DNA from: Gemmatimonadales bacterium
GTDB taxonomy: Bacteria; Gemmatimonadota; Gemmatimonadetes; Gemmatimonadales; GWC2-71-9
Direction of reading: 5' to 3'
DNA: 40,314 bases
NCBI GenBank assembly: GCA_041599395.1
Contig: JBFHWR010000001.1
Location: forward strand, 1-40,314
Shown here piece after piece: positions 8,278 to 28,725 of the stretch. A program made the position numbers and the translations under genes. Within the stretch, counting starts at the first letter, position 1; each line of letters begins with the position of its first letter. The notes under the pieces are model-generated. The model had not been told where the DNA came from, ran no database searches, and saw only the letters and a program-made list of their open reading frames with translations.

Positions 8278-8400
8278 TTGCGTCGCGAAACACCCCCACA
8301 AGCCCACGACCCCCGCCTCCCGGCCACGCGGCCCGCGATGCCGGTTGCCCGCCCTCCAGGCACAATCTCCTCCGCCCGCCGCCAACCTGAGCCCGGATGA

Positions 8401-8459
8401 CCATCCCTCCACCACTACCATTTACCACTCACCAACTGACCACTCACCACCTACCACCT
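8401..8459 (-). repeat. Heptamer-periodic degenerate repeat tract (…ACTACC ATTTACC ACTCACC … ACTCACC ACCTACC ACCTG on + strand)
   Basis: Read directly, about 105 nt upstream of the copC ATG. Same ACCTACC/ACTCACC unit family as 2486-2519. Confidence 0.75.
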
Positions 8460-8564
8460 GCTCGAAATAACCTCCCCCAGGACCCCCAACTATATTCTTC
8501 TGGCACCATGTCTAACTCAGGTTGCAGTGGCAGGGATATCGATATCGAGAAGGGGCACCCAACT

Positions 8565-9086: not shown

Positions 9087-10010
9087 ATGAGCGCCGAGTT
9101 CGTCGCTTTTGTGTTACAGGCCGTCGGGCGACTCACGCTCTATCTCGCGGTATTCATGTTGGTCGGCGTCGCGGTTTTCTATACTCGCGTCTTTGCCCCG
9201 GTGGCTCGGGCCAACCCCTCTCTGGTGCGTACCAACATCGAGCTGGCATTGAGCCGTGCCGGCTTGATTATCGCCGCCACACTCGCCGGCATCGGGATCG
9301 TACGTCTCTTTGCCCAGACCTATGCCGTCTTTGGCGTCGATGACGACATGTCGTTCGGATCCGTTCGCATCATCGCGCTCGAGACACCGTGGGGGGTCGG
9401 CTGGAGGCTGCAATTCGCCGCTGCGTTTGCGGTCATCGCGGCGTTTGTGTGGGTACGGCTTCAGCCGCGCGTCGGTTGGTATGTAGCGGTCGTTGCAACC
9501 CTGCTGGTCGGGGCGACGATTCCGCTCACGGGACATGCCATGGCCCAGCCGACGGGGCAGCTCGTGGGCGTCGGGCTCCAGGTCGCCCACATCCTGGGGG
9601 CCACCGTCTGGATCGGGACCCTCCTGATCCTTTATACGCTCGGCCTGGGAAGCGCGGGTGTGGGTGAGCGCGGAGCGAAATGGGACTCGGATCTGATCAA
9701 CGCCTTCTCCCCGCTGGCGCTCGGCGCGGTGGGTTTCCTCCTCATGGCCGGTGTCACCAGCGCGTTCGTTTTCCTGGATTCATGGAATCAGCTCTGGCAC
9801 ACGGCGTACGGGCGTACACTCCTCGGAAAGATTGCGTTCTTTGCGGGAACGGGCGCTGTCGGCGCATACAACTGGCGCATTTTGCGGCCGCGGCTCGGCG
9901 AGGCGGGGAGCGTGCGTGCGATTCGCCGCTCCATCGCCGGTGAACTCCTCGTTGCCCTCATCGTGCTTTGTGTCACCGCCGTACTGGTGGCGTTGCCGTT
10001 GGAGCATTGA
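9087..10010 (+). CDS. copD: CopD-family integral membrane protein
   Basis: Track ORF 9057..10010. The 9057 start lies inside the terminator hairpin, so ATG 9087 (MSAEFVAF...) is preferred. Multi-pass hydrophobic protein immediately after copC. Confidence 0.8.
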   Translation: MSAEFVAFVLQAVGRLTLYLAVFMLVGVAVFYTRVFAPVARANPSLVRTNIELALSRAGLIIAATLAGIGIVRLFAQTYAVFGVDDDMSFGSVRIIALETPWGVGWRLQFAAAFAVIAAFVWVRLQPRVGWYVAVVATLLVGATIPLTGHAMAQPTGQLVGVGLQVAHILGATVWIGTLLILYTLGLGSAGVGERGAKWDSDLINAFSPLALGAVGFLLMAGVTSAFVFLDSWNQLWHTAYGRTLLGKIAFFAGTGAVGAYNWRILRPRLGEAGSVRAIRRSIAGELLVALIVLCVTAVLVALPLEH

Positions 10011-10028
10011 AGCGGGATACGGACAGCG

Positions 10029-10052
10029 CCCGGACGCCCGGACGCCCGGCGC
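10029..10052 (+). repeat. Short octamer repeat CCCGGACG CCCGGACG CCCGGCGC just after the copD stop
   Basis: Read directly, 19 nt downstream of the TGA at 10008-10010. Confidence 0.4.
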
Positions 10053-10200
10053 TGGGCACCCCGACGCCGGACGGGGATGAACCTTCCGCCGCAGCCGAGG
10101 TATATTTCACGGCGCGCCTTGTATGTGAGACGACGGCCAAACACTTTCTTTGTACACCGAGCACTTTGCACCGATAACTCAGAACACCGGACATTGTACA

Positions 10201-11019
10201 GTGGCTAACGGATTGAAAACCGCGGCATTACTCGGAATCTTGAGCGCGTTGTTCCTGGTCTTGGGCGAGCTCGCCGGCGGCCAAACAGGACTCATCATTG
10301 CGTTCGGCATCGCCGTGGTCATGAACTTCGGCTCGTACTGGTTCGCCGACAAGATCGTGCTGAAGATGCACAAGGCTCAGGAGGTCGGGCCCGACCACCC
10401 GTTGTACCAAATGACCCAGCGCCTAGCGCAACGGGCAGACCTGCCGATGCCGAAGGTCTATGTCATTCCGACTGATTCACCCAATGCTTTCGCCACCGGT
10501 CGCAATCCGGAGCACGCAGCGGTCGCTGCCACCCAGGGAATCATGCGGGTGTTGAACGAAGACGAGCTTGCGGGCGTGATGGCCCACGAGCTGGCGCACG
10601 TGAAGCACCGTGACATCCTCATCAGTTCGGTTGCCGCAACGATCGGGGCCGCCATCATGATGTTTGCGCGGTTTGCGATGTTTTTCGGAGGCGGCCGCGA
10701 CCGGGGCGGCAACCCCATCGCGATGATAGCCATGATGCTGCTCGCGCCACTGGCCGCGATGATCATCCAAGCGGCGATATCCCGCTCACGCGAGTTCGCG
10801 GCCGATCGCGGCGGCGCCGAGATTGCAGGCTCACCGCGCGGCTTGGCGGGCGCACTTCGCAAGATCGAGGCGGCGGCCAAGCAGCGACCGCTCGAGACCA
10901 ACCCTGCCGTCCAACACATGTACATCGTCAAGCCTTTTTCCGGACGCGGTATGCTGTCGCTCTTCAGCACGCATCCGCCCACCGAACAGCGGGTCGAGAG
11001 ACTGATGGCTATTCGATGA
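10201..11019 (+). CDS. htpX: Zinc metalloprotease HtpX
   Basis: [10 protein letters not shown] (HExxH), four hydrophobic segments, C-terminal [11 protein letters not shown]. Start placed at GTG 10201 ([12 protein letters not shown]...); the track start is 10150. Confidence 0.9.
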
Positions 11020-11020
11020 T

Positions 11021-11132
11021 AGGTGTTGGGTGGTAGGTGGTAGGTGGTAGGTGGTAAGTGGTAAGTGGTAAGTGGTAGGTGGGAGGTGTTGGATGTTGAA
11101 TGTTGGGTGTTGCATGTCCGGTGTTGGGTGGT
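11021..11132 (+). repeat. 16 in-register heptamers (AGGTGTT GGGTGGT AGGTGGTx3 AAGTGGTx3 AGGTGGG AGGTGTT GGATGTT GAATGTT GGGTGTT GCATGTC CGGTGTT GGGTGGT)
   Basis: Counted base by base. TG at unit positions 4-5 is invariant in all 16 units. The tract begins 1 nt after the htpX stop. Confidence 0.9.
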
Positions 11133-11285
11133 TGGCATCACCTCACCCACTTGAGCTATGTATCTGCAACTTCTCTGTTCGTGTACGAAAACACTCCCAA
11201 TCAACTTCAGCCAGAACGCGCCGCACCGGTCAAAGCGCTCGACAGGCAATGCCTGCCGCTGACCAACTACATAAGGAGTAGTGTC

Positions 11286-14036
11286 ATGCCATGTAGCGTA
11301 TTCTCTTCGCGACCGATGTTCACCAGCCTCCTCTTCGTTGCCGCAACTGTTGCCACGCCGCTCTGCGCGCAAGATGTGACGGGGGGAGCCACGGTGGAAG
11401 GCATCACCGAGTACACGCTCCCCAACGGCCTCCAGGTGTTGCTGTTCCCTGACGCGAGCAAGCCCACCACAACGGTCAACATCACGTACTTTGTCGGCTC
11501 GCGGCATGAGGCGTACGGCGAAACAGGAATGGCGCACCTCCTCGAACACCTCGTGTTCAAGGGCACCCCCAACCACCCCGACATCCCCCAGGAGCTGACC
11601 GAGCGCGGCGCCCGGCCCAACGGGACCACGTGGTTCGATCGCACCAACTACTTCGAAACCTTTCCTGCGACCGACGAAAACCTCGAGTGGGCACTCGACC
11701 TCGAGGCAGACCGCATGATCAACAGCTTCATCTCCGCTGATGACTTGGCGTCAGAGATGACGGTCGTCCGAAACGAGATGGAGGCGGGAGAGAACAGCCC
11801 GTTTGCCATCTTGATGCAACGGACGCTTTCGACCGCGTATCTGTGGCACAACTACGGAAACTCGACCATCGGTGCTCGCTCCGATGTCGAGAACGTACCG
11901 ATCGGTCGCCTCCAAGACTTCTATCGGAAGTATTATCAGCCGGATAACAGCATGCTTGTAGTGGCCGGCAGGTTTGACGAACAACGAGCCTTGGAACTCA
12001 TCGTCGAAAAGTTTGGCGGCATTCCGCGTCCGGACCGAACCGGGGCCAACTACATCTATCAGACGTACACAAGAGAACCTACCCAGGATGGCGAGCGAAG
12101 GGTCTCGCTCCGTCGGGTCGGGGACACGCAGTTCGTCATGGCGTCGCACCATGTTCCGCCGGGTTCGCACGAAGAATTCGCTGCCGTCAGCATCCTGTCA
12201 CATGCACTCGGCAATCAACCATCAGGGAGGCTGCACAAGGGCCTCGTCGAAACAGGCAAGGCCGCAAGGGTCGGTGCTTTCCCGTTTCAGCTTCGGGAAG
12301 CAGGTCCCTTGCTGCTGTTCGCGGAGGTGCGGAAGGACAGCTCGTTGGACGGCGCCTGGAACTCTATGCAAGAGATTTTGGCGGATGTCGTCACGAATCC
12401 GATCACCGACGAGGAACTGGAGCGTGCCCGCCAGGCATTGCTCCGCACCATTGAACTGACATTCAACAATTCCGAGCGCATCGCACTACAGCTGAGCGAG
12501 TGGGCGGCGATGGGCGACTGGCGGTTGTTCTTCATTCATCGTGACCGCATCAAGGACGTTGGACTGGAGCAGGTGCGCCGAGCAGCCGCGCTGTACTTGA
12601 AGCCGCAAAACCGGACACTCGGCTTCTTCATTCCAACCGACGAGCCCGACCGTGCAGAGATTCCCACTGCCCCGGACATCGTCGCGCTGGTCGATGATTA
12701 TGCCGGCGGCGAGGAAGTGGCAATGGGTGAAGTGTTCGACCCATCGCCCGCAAATATCGAGTCCCGCACGTCCAGGATGACGCTTCCGAGCGGGTTCAAG
12801 CTCGCCCTGCTGCCAAAGGACACGCGCGGCGAAACCGTGTTTGCGACGTTCAGGGTGCTGTTCGGGACCGAATCGTCGCTCATGCACAAGGGAGATGCCG
12901 GGAGTCTCGCCGCCGCAATGCTGATGCGCGGTACGAAGCAGCGGACACGGCAGGAGATCACGGACGAGTTTGCGCGGTTGAAGGCGCAGGTCTCCATTGG
13001 CGGCGGGGTTTCCTCGGCAACGGGACGCATCGAGACGACCCGTGAGAACCTCCCGGCGGTGTTGCGTCTTGTTGGGGAGGTCATGCGCGAGCCGGCCTTC
13101 GACTCTGCGGAGTTCGAGCAACTCAAGCAGGAACGTCTGGCGAGCTTAGAAGCGGCTCGCTCACAGCCAAACGCGCTGGGGTCAATCGCGTTCAGCCGTC
13201 ATCTCGCGCCATGGCCCAAGGGTCATCCCCGTTACACTGCAACGATCGGCGAGGACATCGAGGGTCTACAGAACGCCACGCTCGAGGACGCGCAGGCATT
13301 CTACACCGACTTCTACGGGGCGAAGCGGGGGCACATGGCCGTGGTGGGTGACTTCGAACCCGACCTCGTCACCGAGATCGTGAGCGATATCTTTGGCGAC
13401 TGGCAAGCGCCCATGGCTTCGGAGCGGGTCGCTTCCGTGTATCGCGACATCAGCGCCGAGCGTCTTTCCATTGAGACGCCCGACAAAGCGCAGGCGTTCT
13501 TCGTGGCCGGGATGAACCTGAACCTGGGCGACGACCACCCCGACTACCCAGCCCTCGTGCTCGCCAATTACATGCTGGGCGGCGGATTTCTGAACTCTCG
13601 TTTGGCCACGCGCATTCGGCAAAAGGATGGTCTGAGCTACGGCATCGGGTCGCGTTTCACTGCCCACCCTACGGACGGGAACGGGCAGTTCACGACCTTC
13701 GCCATCTACGCGCCGGAGAACGTCGGCCCGCTCGAGGCCGCGTTCAAGGAGGAAATCACCCGTGCACTGGAGGACGGGTTCACTGACGAGGAAGTCGCGG
13801 CGGCGAAGGCAGGATACCTCGATTCCCGGGGTGTGAGCCGGGCACAAGATGCCTCGCTAGCGAGTATGTTGTCGCAGCACCTCTACTTCAATCGCACGAT
13901 GGATTGGGACGCCACCGTCGAAAACAGGATCGCGGATCTCACTCCGTCGATTATCGCGCAGGCGATGCGACGCCACATCGACGTGGACAAGATCACCGTT
14001 GTCGTGGCGGGAGACTTCTCGCAGCCGGTGCCATAA
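11286..14036 (+). CDS. M16-family (pitrilysin/insulinase-like) zinc peptidase, long single-chain form, exported
   Basis: Track ORF 11100..14036. ATG 11286 has AAGGAG upstream. Signal MPCSVFSSRPMFTSLLFVAATVATPLCA|QD. Inverted zincin motif HLLEHLVFKGT. About 916 aa, consistent with two active/inactive M16 domain pairs. Confidence 0.9.
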   Translation: MPCSVFSSRPMFTSLLFVAATVATPLCAQDVTGGATVEGITEYTLPNGLQVLLFPDASKPTTTVNITYFVGSRHEAYGETGMAHLLEHLVFKGTPNHPDIPQELTERGARPNGTTWFDRTNYFETFPATDENLEWALDLEADRMINSFISADDLASEMTVVRNEMEAGENSPFAILMQRTLSTAYLWHNYGNSTIGARSDVENVPIGRLQDFYRKYYQPDNSMLVVAGRFDEQRALELIVEKFGGIPRPDRTGANYIYQTYTREPTQDGERRVSLRRVGDTQFVMASHHVPPGSHEEFAAVSILSHALGNQPSGRLHKGLVETGKAARVGAFPFQLREAGPLLLFAEVRKDSSLDGAWNSMQEILADVVTNPITDEELERARQALLRTIELTFNNSERIALQLSEWAAMGDWRLFFIHRDRIKDVGLEQVRRAAALYLKPQNRTLGFFIPTDEPDRAEIPTAPDIVALVDDYAGGEEVAMGEVFDPSPANIESRTSRMTLPSGFKLALLPKDTRGETVFATFRVLFGTESSLMHKGDAGSLAAAMLMRGTKQRTRQEITDEFARLKAQVSIGGGVSSATGRIETTRENLPAVLRLVGEVMREPAFDSAEFEQLKQERLASLEAARSQPNALGSIAFSRHLAPWPKGHPRYTATIGEDIEGLQNATLEDAQAFYTDFYGAKRGHMAVVGDFEPDLVTEIVSDIFGDWQAPMASERVASVYRDISAERLSIETPDKAQAFFVAGMNLNLGDDHPDYPALVLANYMLGGGFLNSRLATRIRQKDGLSYGIGSRFTAHPTDGNGQFTTFAIYAPENVGPLEAAFKEEITRALEDGFTDEEVAAAKAGYLDSRGVSRAQDASLASMLSQHLYFNRTMDWDATVENRIADLTPSIIAQAMRRHIDVDKITVVVAGDFSQPVP

Positions 14037-14041
14037 CAGCC

Positions 14042-14095
14042 GGTGTTAGGTGGTGGGTGGCAGGTGGTCCGACCTACCACCTTCCACCTAGCACC
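14042..14095. terminator. 24-position imperfect hairpin made of four G-strand heptamers facing four C-strand heptamers, between convergent genes
   Basis: 14042-14065 pairs with 14072-14095 (20 Watson-Crick pairs, 2 G-T, 2 mismatches), loop GGTCCG. It lies 5 nt after the M16 stop and 20 nt after the minus-strand 14116 stop. There is no U-tract. Confidence 0.5.
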
Positions 14096-14115
14096 TGAGG
14101 ATGTGTGGCTGCGGG

Positions 14116-14313
14116 TTACGCCACCGCGCACGTCATGTCCTGACCACAACACATCGGCGACTTGATCTTGCCGTGCCCTTCGGGACATTCGGAGATGTGA
14201 ACGGTCGTCCCGTTATCCAGCTCGAGCGTCCCGTGTTCGAGTTCCGCGCCGCACTTGCCACACGTCATCGTCCCCACGCTCATGCCGCATTTGTCACAGG
14301 TGTAAGCCGCCAT
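14116..14313 (-). CDS. Cys-rich 65-aa protein (zinc-ribbon-like CxxC...CxxC plus C, H, CC, C)
   Basis: ATG 14313 with GAGG about 10 nt upstream (the track start 14349 is TTG). Sequence: MAAYTCDKCGMSVGTMTCGKCGAELEHGTLELDNGTTVHISECPEGHGKIKSPMCCGQDMTCAVA. Confidence 0.6.
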   Translation of the reverse strand: MAAYTCDKCGMSVGTMTCGKCGAELEHGTLELDNGTTVHISECPEGHGKIKSPMCCGQDMTCAVA

Positions 14314-14403
14314 TCTCGTCCGCCTCGCTCGTACGCAGGTGAATACCAAAGTGATTACCGGTTCGTGAGATCCGGCTCAACAAAGATACTTGGCGGCATG
14401 CGT

Positions 14404-14520
14404 GATTCAACATTCAACATCGAACATCCAACATCCAGCATTCCGGAGCTCAACTGCGCACTCACCCACCCTGCCACCTGCCCCCCCCGAACGGCCCGAC
14501 CGCCTGACCGCCTGACCGCC
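14404..14520 (-). repeat. Heptamer/octamer repeat tract (AACATTC AACATCG AACATCC AACATCC AGCATTC ... CTCACCC ACCCTGCC ACCTGCC ... CCGCCTGA CCGCCTGA)
   Basis: Read directly. The AACATCC units are the reverse complement of the GGATGTT units at 11091-11104. The tract ends 2 nt from the stop of the 14523 gene. Confidence 0.8.
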
Positions 14521-14522
14521 CG

Positions 14523-15440
14523 CTACGCTGCCAGTCTCCAATCGGGATCGGACTGCTGGCACGTGAGATAGGCCAGTCTGGAAGACAGCTCGGCCTGGCT
14601 CAGCCCTGCGAGATCGGGGGAGATTTCGCGTAGCAAGCCGGGCAGCCGATTACTGCCGTAGGAGTAACCACGCCGTCGCACGGAGTACGACACCGCCGGT
14701 TCACGGGTTACCGGACGGCGAGGCAGCATCTCCACGAGCCGCTCATCCAGCTTGAAATTGCTGAATCGCTTGGCGCATTCGCGGGCCAGAGCCGTGACCT
14801 CGCTTCCCGTGTCGCCGGACGGAATCGAACAGACTCCGGCGAATTCCGACTCGCCTTCGACAAAGGAGCCGCGCATGAGCCCGGTGCTGGTGGGGATGTA
14901 GAGATCTAGCATGGCTGGACCCCGGCGAACGGTATCAGCCACCGCGTCATTCTCCTCGTCTTGGTTGGGTTCCCGGCCGGGCGATCCGCCCGCAGCACTC
15001 AACAGACGTTCGATCGTTCGCGCCAACCCCTGCCCTGGTTCTTCTCCGCGAGGTGGTTGCGTTGCGCACCGGGGGCTACACACCACACCGGTGGTCGGGG
15101 TATGGTACGGTACCTCGACATCCGGTCCCTCGCACATGCGGATGACGAGACCATGCTCCCCAAAGCAGAACGATTGCACCACCCTTTGTGGCGGCAACAA
15201 GAGTTGGCTTCCGCGGATGACTGCCAGCTTGTGTCCTGCGAGGCGGAGCGTTTGCGCGGTCGCGGCGACCCGAATCCGGCTGCGGTCGGCAACCCATATC
15301 TCGGGCACGTTGTACCTTGATTTCATGCGCACCTGAGCAGGCGTCAGTCCGAAGCACGGGGCAGCGGAGCGCACGTCCACCTCCCCCTGTGGCGGATCCG
15401 AAACGATGAGGAATTGTTCTGGCGGCGCCCGTGTTTCCAA
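14523..15440 (-). CDS. Hypothetical protein (305 aa by track; start uncertain)
   Basis: Only long ORF here that is co-directional with its neighbours. The track start is TTG 15440; an in-frame ATG occurs at 15326. No motif recognised. Confidence 0.55.
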   Translation of the reverse strand: METRAPPEQFLIVSDPPQGEVDVRSAAPCFGLTPAQVRMKSRYNVPEIWVADRSRIRVAATAQTLRLAGHKLAVIRGSQLLLPPQRVVQSFCFGEHGLVIRMCEGPDVEVPYHTPTTGVVCSPRCATQPPRGEEPGQGLARTIERLLSAAGGSPGREPNQDEENDAVADTVRRGPAMLDLYIPTSTGLMRGSFVEGESEFAGVCSIPSGDTGSEVTALARECAKRFSNFKLDERLVEMLPRRPVTREPAVSYSVRRRGYSYGSNRLPGLLREISPDLAGLSQAELSSRLAYLTCQQSDPDWRLAA

Positions 15441-27291: not shown

Positions 27292-27312
27292 CTTACCCTA
27301 CCCTTCCTTCGA

Positions 27313-27347
27313 GAGTCGGGAGTCGGGAGCCGGCGGCGGGAGCGGCG
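27313..27347 (+). repeat. Heptamer tract GAGTCGG GAGTCGG GAGCCGG CGGCGGG AGCGGCG
   Basis: Read directly, in the aroC-aroK intergenic region. Confidence 0.5.
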
Positions 27348-27389
27348 ATCCAGCAACTAACCGGGAACCACTATGATCGATCAATCTCA

Positions 27390-27445
27390 AATCGCCGATC
27401 GCCGATCGCCAATCGCCAATCGCTCACCTACCACGTATCACCTAA
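27390..27445 (-). repeat. Eight in-register heptamers AATCGCC GATCGCC GATCGCC AATCGCC AATCGCT CACCTAC CACGTAT CACCTAA (+ strand)
   Basis: Counted base by base. The last unit overlaps the aroC stop codon (27442-27444). Confidence 0.8.
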
Positions 27446-28676: not shown

Positions 28677-28725
28677 CATTCAAACATCCAACATCCAGCG
28701 TCCAGCGTCCAGCGTCCCACCTAAG
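28677..28725 (-). repeat. Seven heptamers CATTCAA ACATCCA ACATCCA GCGTCCA GCGTCCA GCGTCCC ACCTAAG (+ strand)
   Basis: Counted base by base. Directly abuts the terminator at 28726. Confidence 0.8.

Follow-up and report, generated by a model that had tools for sequence, protein, structure and literature searches.

The stretch of DNA analysed here, referred to below as the window, comprises 40,314 nucleotides from a Gemmatimonadales bacterium (positions 1 to 40,314 of the forward strand of contig JBFHWR010000001.1, GenBank assembly GCA_041599395.1), and the element in question is a tract of tandemly repeated heptamers that lies at 11021-11132 on the + strand, between a gene for an HtpX-like M48 peptidase and a gene for an M16 peptidase. 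The htpX-like gene occupies 10201-11019 on the + strand (Pfam PF01435, E 1.2e-34); its GTG start at 10201 was inferred from the point where the alignments with orthologues begin, and its TGA stop codon lies at 11017-11019. The M16 gene (Pfam PF00675 and PF05193) runs on the same strand from an ATG at 11286 to position 14036, and has a ribosome-binding site, AAGGAG, at 11273-11278. A first-pass annotation of the window had described 16 consecutive heptamers in one phase and free of indels, which begin 1 nt past the htpX stop codon in a spacer of 266 nt, carry TG at unit positions 4-5 throughout and T at position 7 in 14 of the 16 units, and contain only 3 C residues in 112 nt; reading the sequence base by base bore out each of these points (composition A16 C3 G56 T37). 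The units are, in order, AGGTGTT, GGGTGGT, AGGTGGT three times, AAGTGGT three times, AGGTGGG, AGGTGTT, GGATGTT, GAATGTT, GGGTGTT, GCATGTC, CGGTGTT and GGGTGGT. Tandem Repeats Finder reports the tract in two rows, 11020-11088 (9.9 copies, 90% matches, 0 indels) and 11085-11135 (7.1 copies, 70% matches). A further unit-like heptamer, CGATGAT, spans the htpX stop codon at 11014-11020 (+), where the TGA is followed directly by TAG at 11020-11022. The tract contains 24 GG dinucleotides and 20 G runs in its 112 nt, and its description as the richest GG run of the window holds for the + strand only, since the C-rich tracts near 8291-8460 exceed it on the other strand.

The tract belongs to a genome-wide class of period-7 arrays. 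In the source genome, a draft of 3.74 Mb in 450 contigs with 62.5% G+C and 84% completeness, our lag detector found 240 period-7 arrays, whereas block shuffles gave 2, and no period other than 7 and its multiples gave more than 23. Tandem Repeats Finder gave 504 period-7 rows, far above any other period. The second most common class was formed by 23 arrays of period 8, all of them intergenic. Although intergenic DNA makes up 12.7% of the bases, it holds 230 of the 240 period-7 arrays (96%). An expectation-maximisation sort divided these arrays into three unit families, AGGWGNT (102 arrays), GNGAGTG (83) and CNGGACG (55); by a stricter count, the consensus unit is AGGWGNT in 82 of the 240 (34%), as against 0.5% of background intergenic heptamers. 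The tract is a member of the AGGWGNT family, its AGGTGKT units grading into GRATGTT, and it ranks fourth in length among the 240 arrays. Units of the GRATGTT type recur at two other places in the window (14405-14441 and 28683-28717), and the relatives G001 and G002 have them too. Arrays sometimes break the assembly: seven contigs end inside a period-7 array (e.g. C199, C147, C273 and C111), and an array lies within 150 nt of 22 of the 900 contig ends, where about 11 would be expected. As contigs end in arrays, the numbers and lengths given here are lower bounds.

The placement of the arrays relative to genes is far from even. Their density is highest in spacers between convergent genes (64 in 38 kb) and lowest between divergent ones (33 in 111 kb), and in co-directional spacers they crowd toward the upstream stop codon (Kolmogorov-Smirnov p 7e-8). 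Array starts peak sharply at 0-3 nt from stop codons, and most stop-abutting arrays start at or just past the stop codon rather than running into the gene; for the tract itself, the distance is 1 nt to the htpX stop codon, as against 153 nt to the M16 start. The strand is also governed by distance. Among strand-skewed arrays within 3 nt past a stop codon, 51 have the G-rich strand as sense and 1 has the C-rich strand; the corresponding numbers are 23 and 4 at 4-20 nt (74 and 5 overall within 20 nt), and 17 and 61 at 61-400 nt. The bias is also present in co-directional and in convergent spacers, each taken alone, and in the last 20 nt ahead of start codons, 8 arrays are C-rich and 1 is G-rich on the sense strand. 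When all distances were pooled no strand bias was seen, an outcome that splitting by distance from the stop codon reversed. That the G-rich strand of the tract is the sense strand of htpX, as had been noticed in the window, is correct, and it follows a strong rule of the whole genome, to which 51 of the 52 strand-skewed arrays within 3 nt of a stop codon conform.

Independently of any gene calls, neighbouring arrays of opposite skew stand in the order G-rich then C-rich 22 times, and in the reverse order once. A pattern scan of five genomes likewise gave the G-then-C order at 5 loci in the source genome, 2 in G148 and 1 in G077, and the C-then-G order at 0 loci. The units are complementary in 9 of the 22 G-then-C pairs (20% expected by chance, p 0.02); in the other 13 they are not (unit distance at least 2), and the strand rule therefore extends beyond hairpin formation. 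A fold z below -2 was obtained for 36% of the spacers with arrays, compared with 9% of those without, and the median fold z of convergent spacers with arrays is -2.75. No association was found between array orientation and the GC skew of the contig, which served as a proxy for replication direction, and duplex energies between arrays and their flanks gave no discrimination, as G-rich RNA pairs with almost anything. Candidate causes of the strand rule are the avoidance of C-rich, Rho-loading RNA right behind terminating ribosomes (the genome does encode Rho), the avoidance of G-rich, Shine-Dalgarno-like RNA ahead of start codons, and a partner protein. The supply of stop codons was also considered as a cause and was rejected; stop-abutting arrays that close all three frames on both strands number 19 with the G-rich and 0 with the C-rich strand as sense. 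As a separate observation, the RNA-binding domain of Rho has two matches above the Pfam cut-off in the source genome (G000 C275:97-318 and C33:3340-3552), possibly two rho-like genes.

At the htpX-M16 junction the tract is a solo G arm. The only piece that could serve as a partner is a 12-nt C-rich stretch, CACCTCACCCAC (11139-11150), which follows the tract after a gap of 6 nt and is able to pair with its last unit; in a fold of 11100-11170, the last G unit and part of this piece form a short imperfect hairpin at 11126-11148 (+). This C-rich piece may be a vestigial C arm of the tract. The fold of 11100-11170 was no better than that of shuffled sequences (z +0.43), nor was the RNA fold of the whole htpX-M16 spacer (z +0.9). 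The 153 nt that remain of the spacer (11133-11285, +), in which the AAGGAG of the M16 gene is located, have no other copy in the genome and contain no array relic. With a right flank that occurs only once in the genome, the tract is not part of a fixed mobile element, and we rejected for this locus the idea that the arrays are carried by a mobile element with fixed flanks. Scans for known signals gave no intrinsic terminator (a GC-rich hairpin followed by a U tract) in 10900-11400, no sigma-70-like promoter in the spacer, and no match up to E 1 to the covariance models of Rfam 15 in 10000-15000. Canonical terminators in the first 20 kb of the window occur at chance level, 17 compared with 14.4 +/- 4.2 in shuffles.

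The units within the arrays bear the signature of slippage. Identical units of the tract sit in adjacent blocks, and the identity between its units falls from 0.79 to about 0.60 with unit distance; for arrays of at least 8 units, it falls from 0.87 between neighbours to 0.67 at 7 or more units apart, with the caveat that the detector itself favours likeness between adjacent units. Such a decay is typical of local duplication with later point mutation. Perfect arrays also exist, e.g. one of ten copies on contig C199, which indicates recent growth. Turnover was seen between congeners: in G001, which shares the genus of the source genome and is about 73-76% identical to it at the nucleotide level where the two are syntenic, an 88-nt array of AGGTGTY units lies right after a stop codon, and the orthologous site in the source genome (G000) is a 31-nt spacer without an array. 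The identity decay and this difference between congeners fit growth by slippage and fast turnover. The causes that had been proposed for the strict phasing of the tract are thus borne out in part: replication slippage is supported by the adjacent identical blocks, the identity decay, and the gain or loss of arrays between congeners, and the tract is no isolated case of local selection, being one of about 240 arrays genome-wide.

Searches for the junction itself in relatives gave no counterpart. None of nine htpX orthologues from family- or order-level relatives has an array past the gene or an M16 neighbour, no orthologous htpX-M16 junction was found among the relatives searched, the M16 gene has no close orthologue in G001 or G002, and look-ups of the exact M16 and HtpX proteins returned no other assemblies. 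In a scan of metagenomes, the htpX relatives reached at most 76% amino-acid identity and none had an M16 gene adjoining htpX. The 313 kb around htpX relatives in soil metagenomes contain 12 period-7 arrays, and 0-1 arrays of each other period. Four of these relatives have arrays at or just past the htpX stop codon, with the units TTCAAGG (L063:3835-3950), GGGCTGA (L087:3557-3640), CCCTGAG (L128:3826-3881) and GGGATTC (L122:3832-4045), so that the type of site is reused and the sequence is not conserved. A mirrored second arm is present in L063 and L087; L128 breaks the strand rule, its C-rich strand being sense beside the stop codon, and in L092 C-rich arrays follow the htpX stop codon at distances of about 70 nt and 130 nt. 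As a side observation, the closest htpX orthologue, L002 (G002:C38; about 71% amino-acid identity), aligns as two pieces, each in another frame, at residues 20-238 and 239-286, and is either frameshifted or affected by an assembly error.

At the level of the phylum, 300 genomes were scanned for three AGGWGKT units, with 122 matches in the source genome and 1-15 matches in each of 17 other genomes, which belong to 13 of the 128 genera; in samples of 100 kb, G018 had 4 period-7 arrays, and G033 and G041 had none. The source genome is thus an extreme within a patchy distribution. We also noted that G089, G311, G180 and others have no AGGWGKT arrays but do match the control pattern, in which the units were read backwards; these genomes probably carry other heptamer families.

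The tract had also been put forward as a G-quadruplex candidate. As such it is weak: doublets make up 16 of its 20 G runs, and no quadruplex of more than two tetrads is possible; its four GGG runs are scattered, and it has no canonical four-unit quadruplex built from G3-G4 tracts. The mean G4Hunter score is 0.96, with 1.32 in the best 25-nt window, and when ViennaRNA may form quadruplexes, its minimum-energy fold contains three of the two-tetrad kind and reaches -29.8 kcal/mol, which is within one standard deviation of composition-matched shuffles (-21.1 +/- 9.8). These predictions suggest at most that a weak two-tetrad or hybrid structure might form at the tract. Quadruplex formation does not unite the class: four or more GGG runs are found in only 21 of the 240 arrays, and many units, such as GTTGAAT, GCGATTG and CACAGTA, are unable to form quadruplexes.

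Some arrays of the class frame genes of the PF05635 family. The source genome has 7 matches to PF05635, 6 of them above the Pfam cut-off and none on the contig of the window; these loci (L157-L163) lie at G000 C260:4209-4523, C278:167-454, C66:38-319, C7:5644-5919, C144:2416-2727, C183:7828-8019 and C298:10-285. The genes on C260, C278, C7 and C144 are framed by a G arm upstream and a C arm downstream; those on C66 and C183 are preceded by a G arm, and the contig stops short of their other side. The arms on C260 are of the AGGWGNT family, as in the tract. Look-alike paralogues have similar arms among these six genes, with GRCGG-type 8-mers on C278 and C66 and GGGAGT-type units on C7 and C144; the C144 copy contains an in-frame TAA. 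All six PF05635 loci taken from G001, G018 and G033 have tandem arrays, mostly of 7-9-nt units, on both sides, and at most of them the downstream units clearly mirror the upstream ones; one of the G033 loci has longer and more complex repeats. A search of G001 and G002 for an empty site of the C260 cassette gave array matches only. PF05635 resembles Avd of the diversity-generating retroelements, and among solved structures the one closest to the C260 protein is chain 2gsc_A (XCC0516), whose name we take to be a Xanthomonas campestris locus tag.

Heptamer arrays with such habits have been described before. Rehm et al. (2015; PMC4692102) counted about 185 arrays of GGGAATC-type units per genome in two Xanthomonas genomes, and Nostoc was found to carry comparable arrays of GGGGAYT; about 90% of the arrays are intergenic, at a mean distance of 28 nt from the upstream open reading frame (ORF) and 160 nt to the downstream one. 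According to the same study, the G-rich strand is the coding strand when the array lies downstream of an ORF and the non-coding strand when it lies upstream, each genome has 70-75 convergent inverted pairs, arrays are scarce between divergent genes, array length differs between the two species, and the repeats form quadruplexes in vitro, with no function found. It further cites a report of 2007 that long simple repeats of heptamers are over-represented between bacterial genes, with cause and function not established (PMC4692102). The arrays studied here resemble those of Xanthomonas and Nostoc in their tandem 7-nt units, their number of about 200 per genome, their intergenic location far nearer to the upstream than to the downstream ORF, their scarcity between divergent genes, their strand rule, their convergent inverted pairs (22 G-then-C and 1 C-then-G genome-wide), and their variation in length between related species (at another locus, in G001 and G000). 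On the other hand, they occur in Gemmatimonadota, they have at least three unit families instead of one, their units contain GG doublets instead of GGG or GGGG runs, so that canonical quadruplexes are unavailable, and the tract is a 16-unit solo arm. Every positional rule found here matches Xanthomonas and Nostoc, and the kind of element is therefore already known, although no paper on heptamer repeats of this kind in Gemmatimonadota was found in the literature searched. The source genome reproduces the position and strand rules in another phylum with other units, and thus the rules belong to the class and not to one unit sequence or to quadruplex-forming G tracts.

Other known systems share some of these features. 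The 23S rRNA intervening sequences (IVSs) of Coxiella and Leptospira carry an S23p / PF05635 ORF, and in Coxiella their arms form a stem that is cut by RNase III (PMC4990558). In the source genome and its relatives, PF05635 genes similarly lie between arms that are able to pair, and the unit families of these arms are those of gene-less arrays; in contrast to the IVSs, the arms here are tandem heptamers, which are not described there (PMC4990558), and the tract has no ORF and no partner arm and lies between protein-coding genes rather than in 23S rRNA. A PF05635 ORF in a loop and a long complementary stem, as in an IVS-type cassette, are both missing from the tract; such a stem is present at other loci. 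The TAACTGA repeats of marine Beggiatoaceae, cyanobacteria and Bacteroidetes (MacGregor 2015, PMC4679880) are direct repeats in which a single unvarying unit occurs 2-6 times, in most cases just a few nt ahead of a start codon; like the arrays here they are heptamers, intergenic, present in many sets per genome and patchy in phylogeny, but the arrays here have many different units, are longer and prefer the stop-codon side. Three tandemly repetitive heptanucleotides are on record for Calothrix PCC 7601. The presence of several heptamer units per genome, in tandem, between genes and unexplained, is common to these cyanobacterial repeats and to the arrays of the source genome. The Calothrix heptamers are reportedly the short tandemly repeated repetitive (STRR) sequences described by Mazel et al. 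in 1990, and the STRR units are said to differ in sequence from those here. The repetitive extragenic palindromic (REP) sequences and bacterial interspersed mosaic elements (BIMEs) of enterobacteria are dispersed palindromes at the 3' ends of genes and between co-transcribed genes; a REP is an imperfect palindrome of fixed form, about 35 nt long, and has no tandem heptamers, and REPs are not known to be related in sequence to the arrays.

On balance, the tract is probably the non-coding solo G arm of an intergenic heptamer-repeat system, grown by slippage and without a locus-specific function. It would have grown from AGGTGKT-type units by replication slippage or local duplication, and point mutations would now be degrading it; it would be tolerated where selection allows, that is, directly behind a stop codon and with the G-rich strand as the sense (non-template) strand. 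Where the arrays are active at all, they would act as the two arms of long inverted repeats in the fixed order G arm then C arm, and these inverted-repeat elements would sit at gene ends, the arms in some copies enclosing a PF05635 (Avd-like) gene as in the 23S rRNA IVSs. As the tract has no real partner arm, we infer no locus-specific job for it, and its effect would be limited to a longer htpX 3' untranslated region and spacer and to stops in all three frames past htpX. Several points weigh against this interpretation. A strand rule of 51 to 1 beside stop codons is hard to obtain from neutral slippage alone, and points to strand-specific selection or a strand-specific mechanism; the choice of units is far from random and recurs in distant genera, which hints at a sequence-specific partner; the tract itself, 16 units long and with fresh identical blocks, could be under selection; and the genes were called with our own codon-usage ORF scorer, which gives exact stops and only approximate starts. 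It is conceivable, though doubtful, that the heptamer arrays, including the tract, are made or maintained by PF05635 cassettes, each paralogue recognising a unit of its own, with the G arm placed by the stop codon and the C arm beyond it, and that the gene-less pairs and solo arms are relics which continue to grow by slippage. If this were true, the long-unexplained excess of 7-nt repeats, the 2007 report of which is reportedly that of Mrazek et al., would gain a protein partner. A hint in this direction from outside the source genome is the XCC0516 tag of the structure closest to the C260 protein, Xanthomonas being the genus in which repeats of this kind were counted first. The PF05635 link, seen in four genomes, supplies a testable candidate for such a partner.

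An alternative that we regard as unlikely is that the tract works as a 3'-end element, in which two-tetrad or DNA:RNA hybrid quadruplexes, or stable R-loops, formed by the tract as non-template DNA or as RNA, would pause or terminate the polymerase after htpX or shield the 3' end of the mRNA from exonucleases. Such a role would suit the genome-wide rule that the G-rich strand is sense right past stop codons, the chance-level number of canonical terminators and the three two-tetrad quadruplexes of the minimum-energy fold, and related heptamers with GGG runs, from Xanthomonas and Nostoc, are for the most part transcribed and fold into quadruplexes in vitro (PMC4692102). However, nearly all G runs of the tract are doublets, its G4Hunter mean is 0.96 and its fold energy no exception among shuffles, few arrays of the class have four or more GGG runs and many units of the class can form no quadruplex at all, the orthologous sites in relatives are without arrays, and Rehm et al. 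found no regulatory role (PMC4692102). Distinctly unlikely is a decayed remnant of a paired hairpin element or PF05635 cassette, of which the C arm and possibly a loop gene were lost and the G arm kept growing. Paired arms in the fixed G-then-C order are indeed common, the arms of the C260 PF05635 gene share the AGGWGNT family, and the 12-nt C-rich piece 6 nt past the tract pairs with its last unit; against this, the window has no PF05635 match, the remainder of the spacer is unique and holds no array relic, and the 13 of 22 G-then-C pairs with non-complementary units indicate that arms need not originate as pairs.

We consider it very unlikely that the tract is a binding array for a sequence-specific protein, such as a PF05635 four-helix-bundle paralogue or a nucleoid protein that reads AGGWGNT on DNA or RNA. 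The enrichment of AGGWGNT (34% of arrays and 0.5% of background heptamers), the identical units in scattered genera and the similar arm units of similar PF05635 paralogues would all be expected of such an array, but the covariation of paralogues and arms rests on six genes, G033 has two PF05635 genes yet no array in its 100-kb sample, and the degenerate 3' half of the tract would bind poorly. Least plausible is a contingency spacer, in which slippage in the number of units would tune the expression of M16 or htpX in a phase-variable manner. The fresh identical blocks do suggest ongoing slippage, and heptamer repeats in the promoter region of Haemophilus hmw1A reportedly act in this way; yet the tract sits right against the stop codon upstream, with 153 nt between it and the M16 start, outside any promoter or ORF, and the roughly 240 arrays neighbour genes of every sort, which was also the ground on which Rehm et al. 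argued against phase variation (PMC4692102).

Further arrays of the class are found elsewhere in the window. The closest is a sister element in paired form at 14042-14096, in which the G arm (14042-14068) abuts the M16 stop codon and the C arm (14072-14096) abuts the stop codon of the convergent gene. An array of GGATGTT and GAATGTT units at 14405-14441 is G-rich on the - strand and lies downstream of a - strand ORF that ends at 14523, and another of GGACGCT and GGATGTT units at 28683-28717, also G-rich on the - strand, lies downstream of a large lipoprotein gene. Two arrays are C-rich on the + strand: the one at 8410-8460, composed of the reverse complements of GGTGGTA and GAGTGGT units, is upstream of a + strand gene, and the one at 2486-2517, with ACTCACC and ACCACCT units, is in a divergent spacer. 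In a spacer at 27309-27423 (- strand), GCGATTG-type G arms stand past a stop codon and a C arm stands 17 nt before the next start codon. Two - strand ORFs run across the tract, at 10458-11576 (372 aa) and 10831-11115 (94 aa); they overlap htpX and M16 and look spurious, and they owe their length to the absence of stop codons from all frames of the tract's C-rich strand. For annotation in general, the C-rich strands of such arrays are open in all frames and yield false long ORFs that can mislead gene callers. Finally, a perfect octamer repeat, CGCCCGGA in 2.9 copies, is located at 10027-10049, between the upstream gene, which ends at 10010, and htpX.

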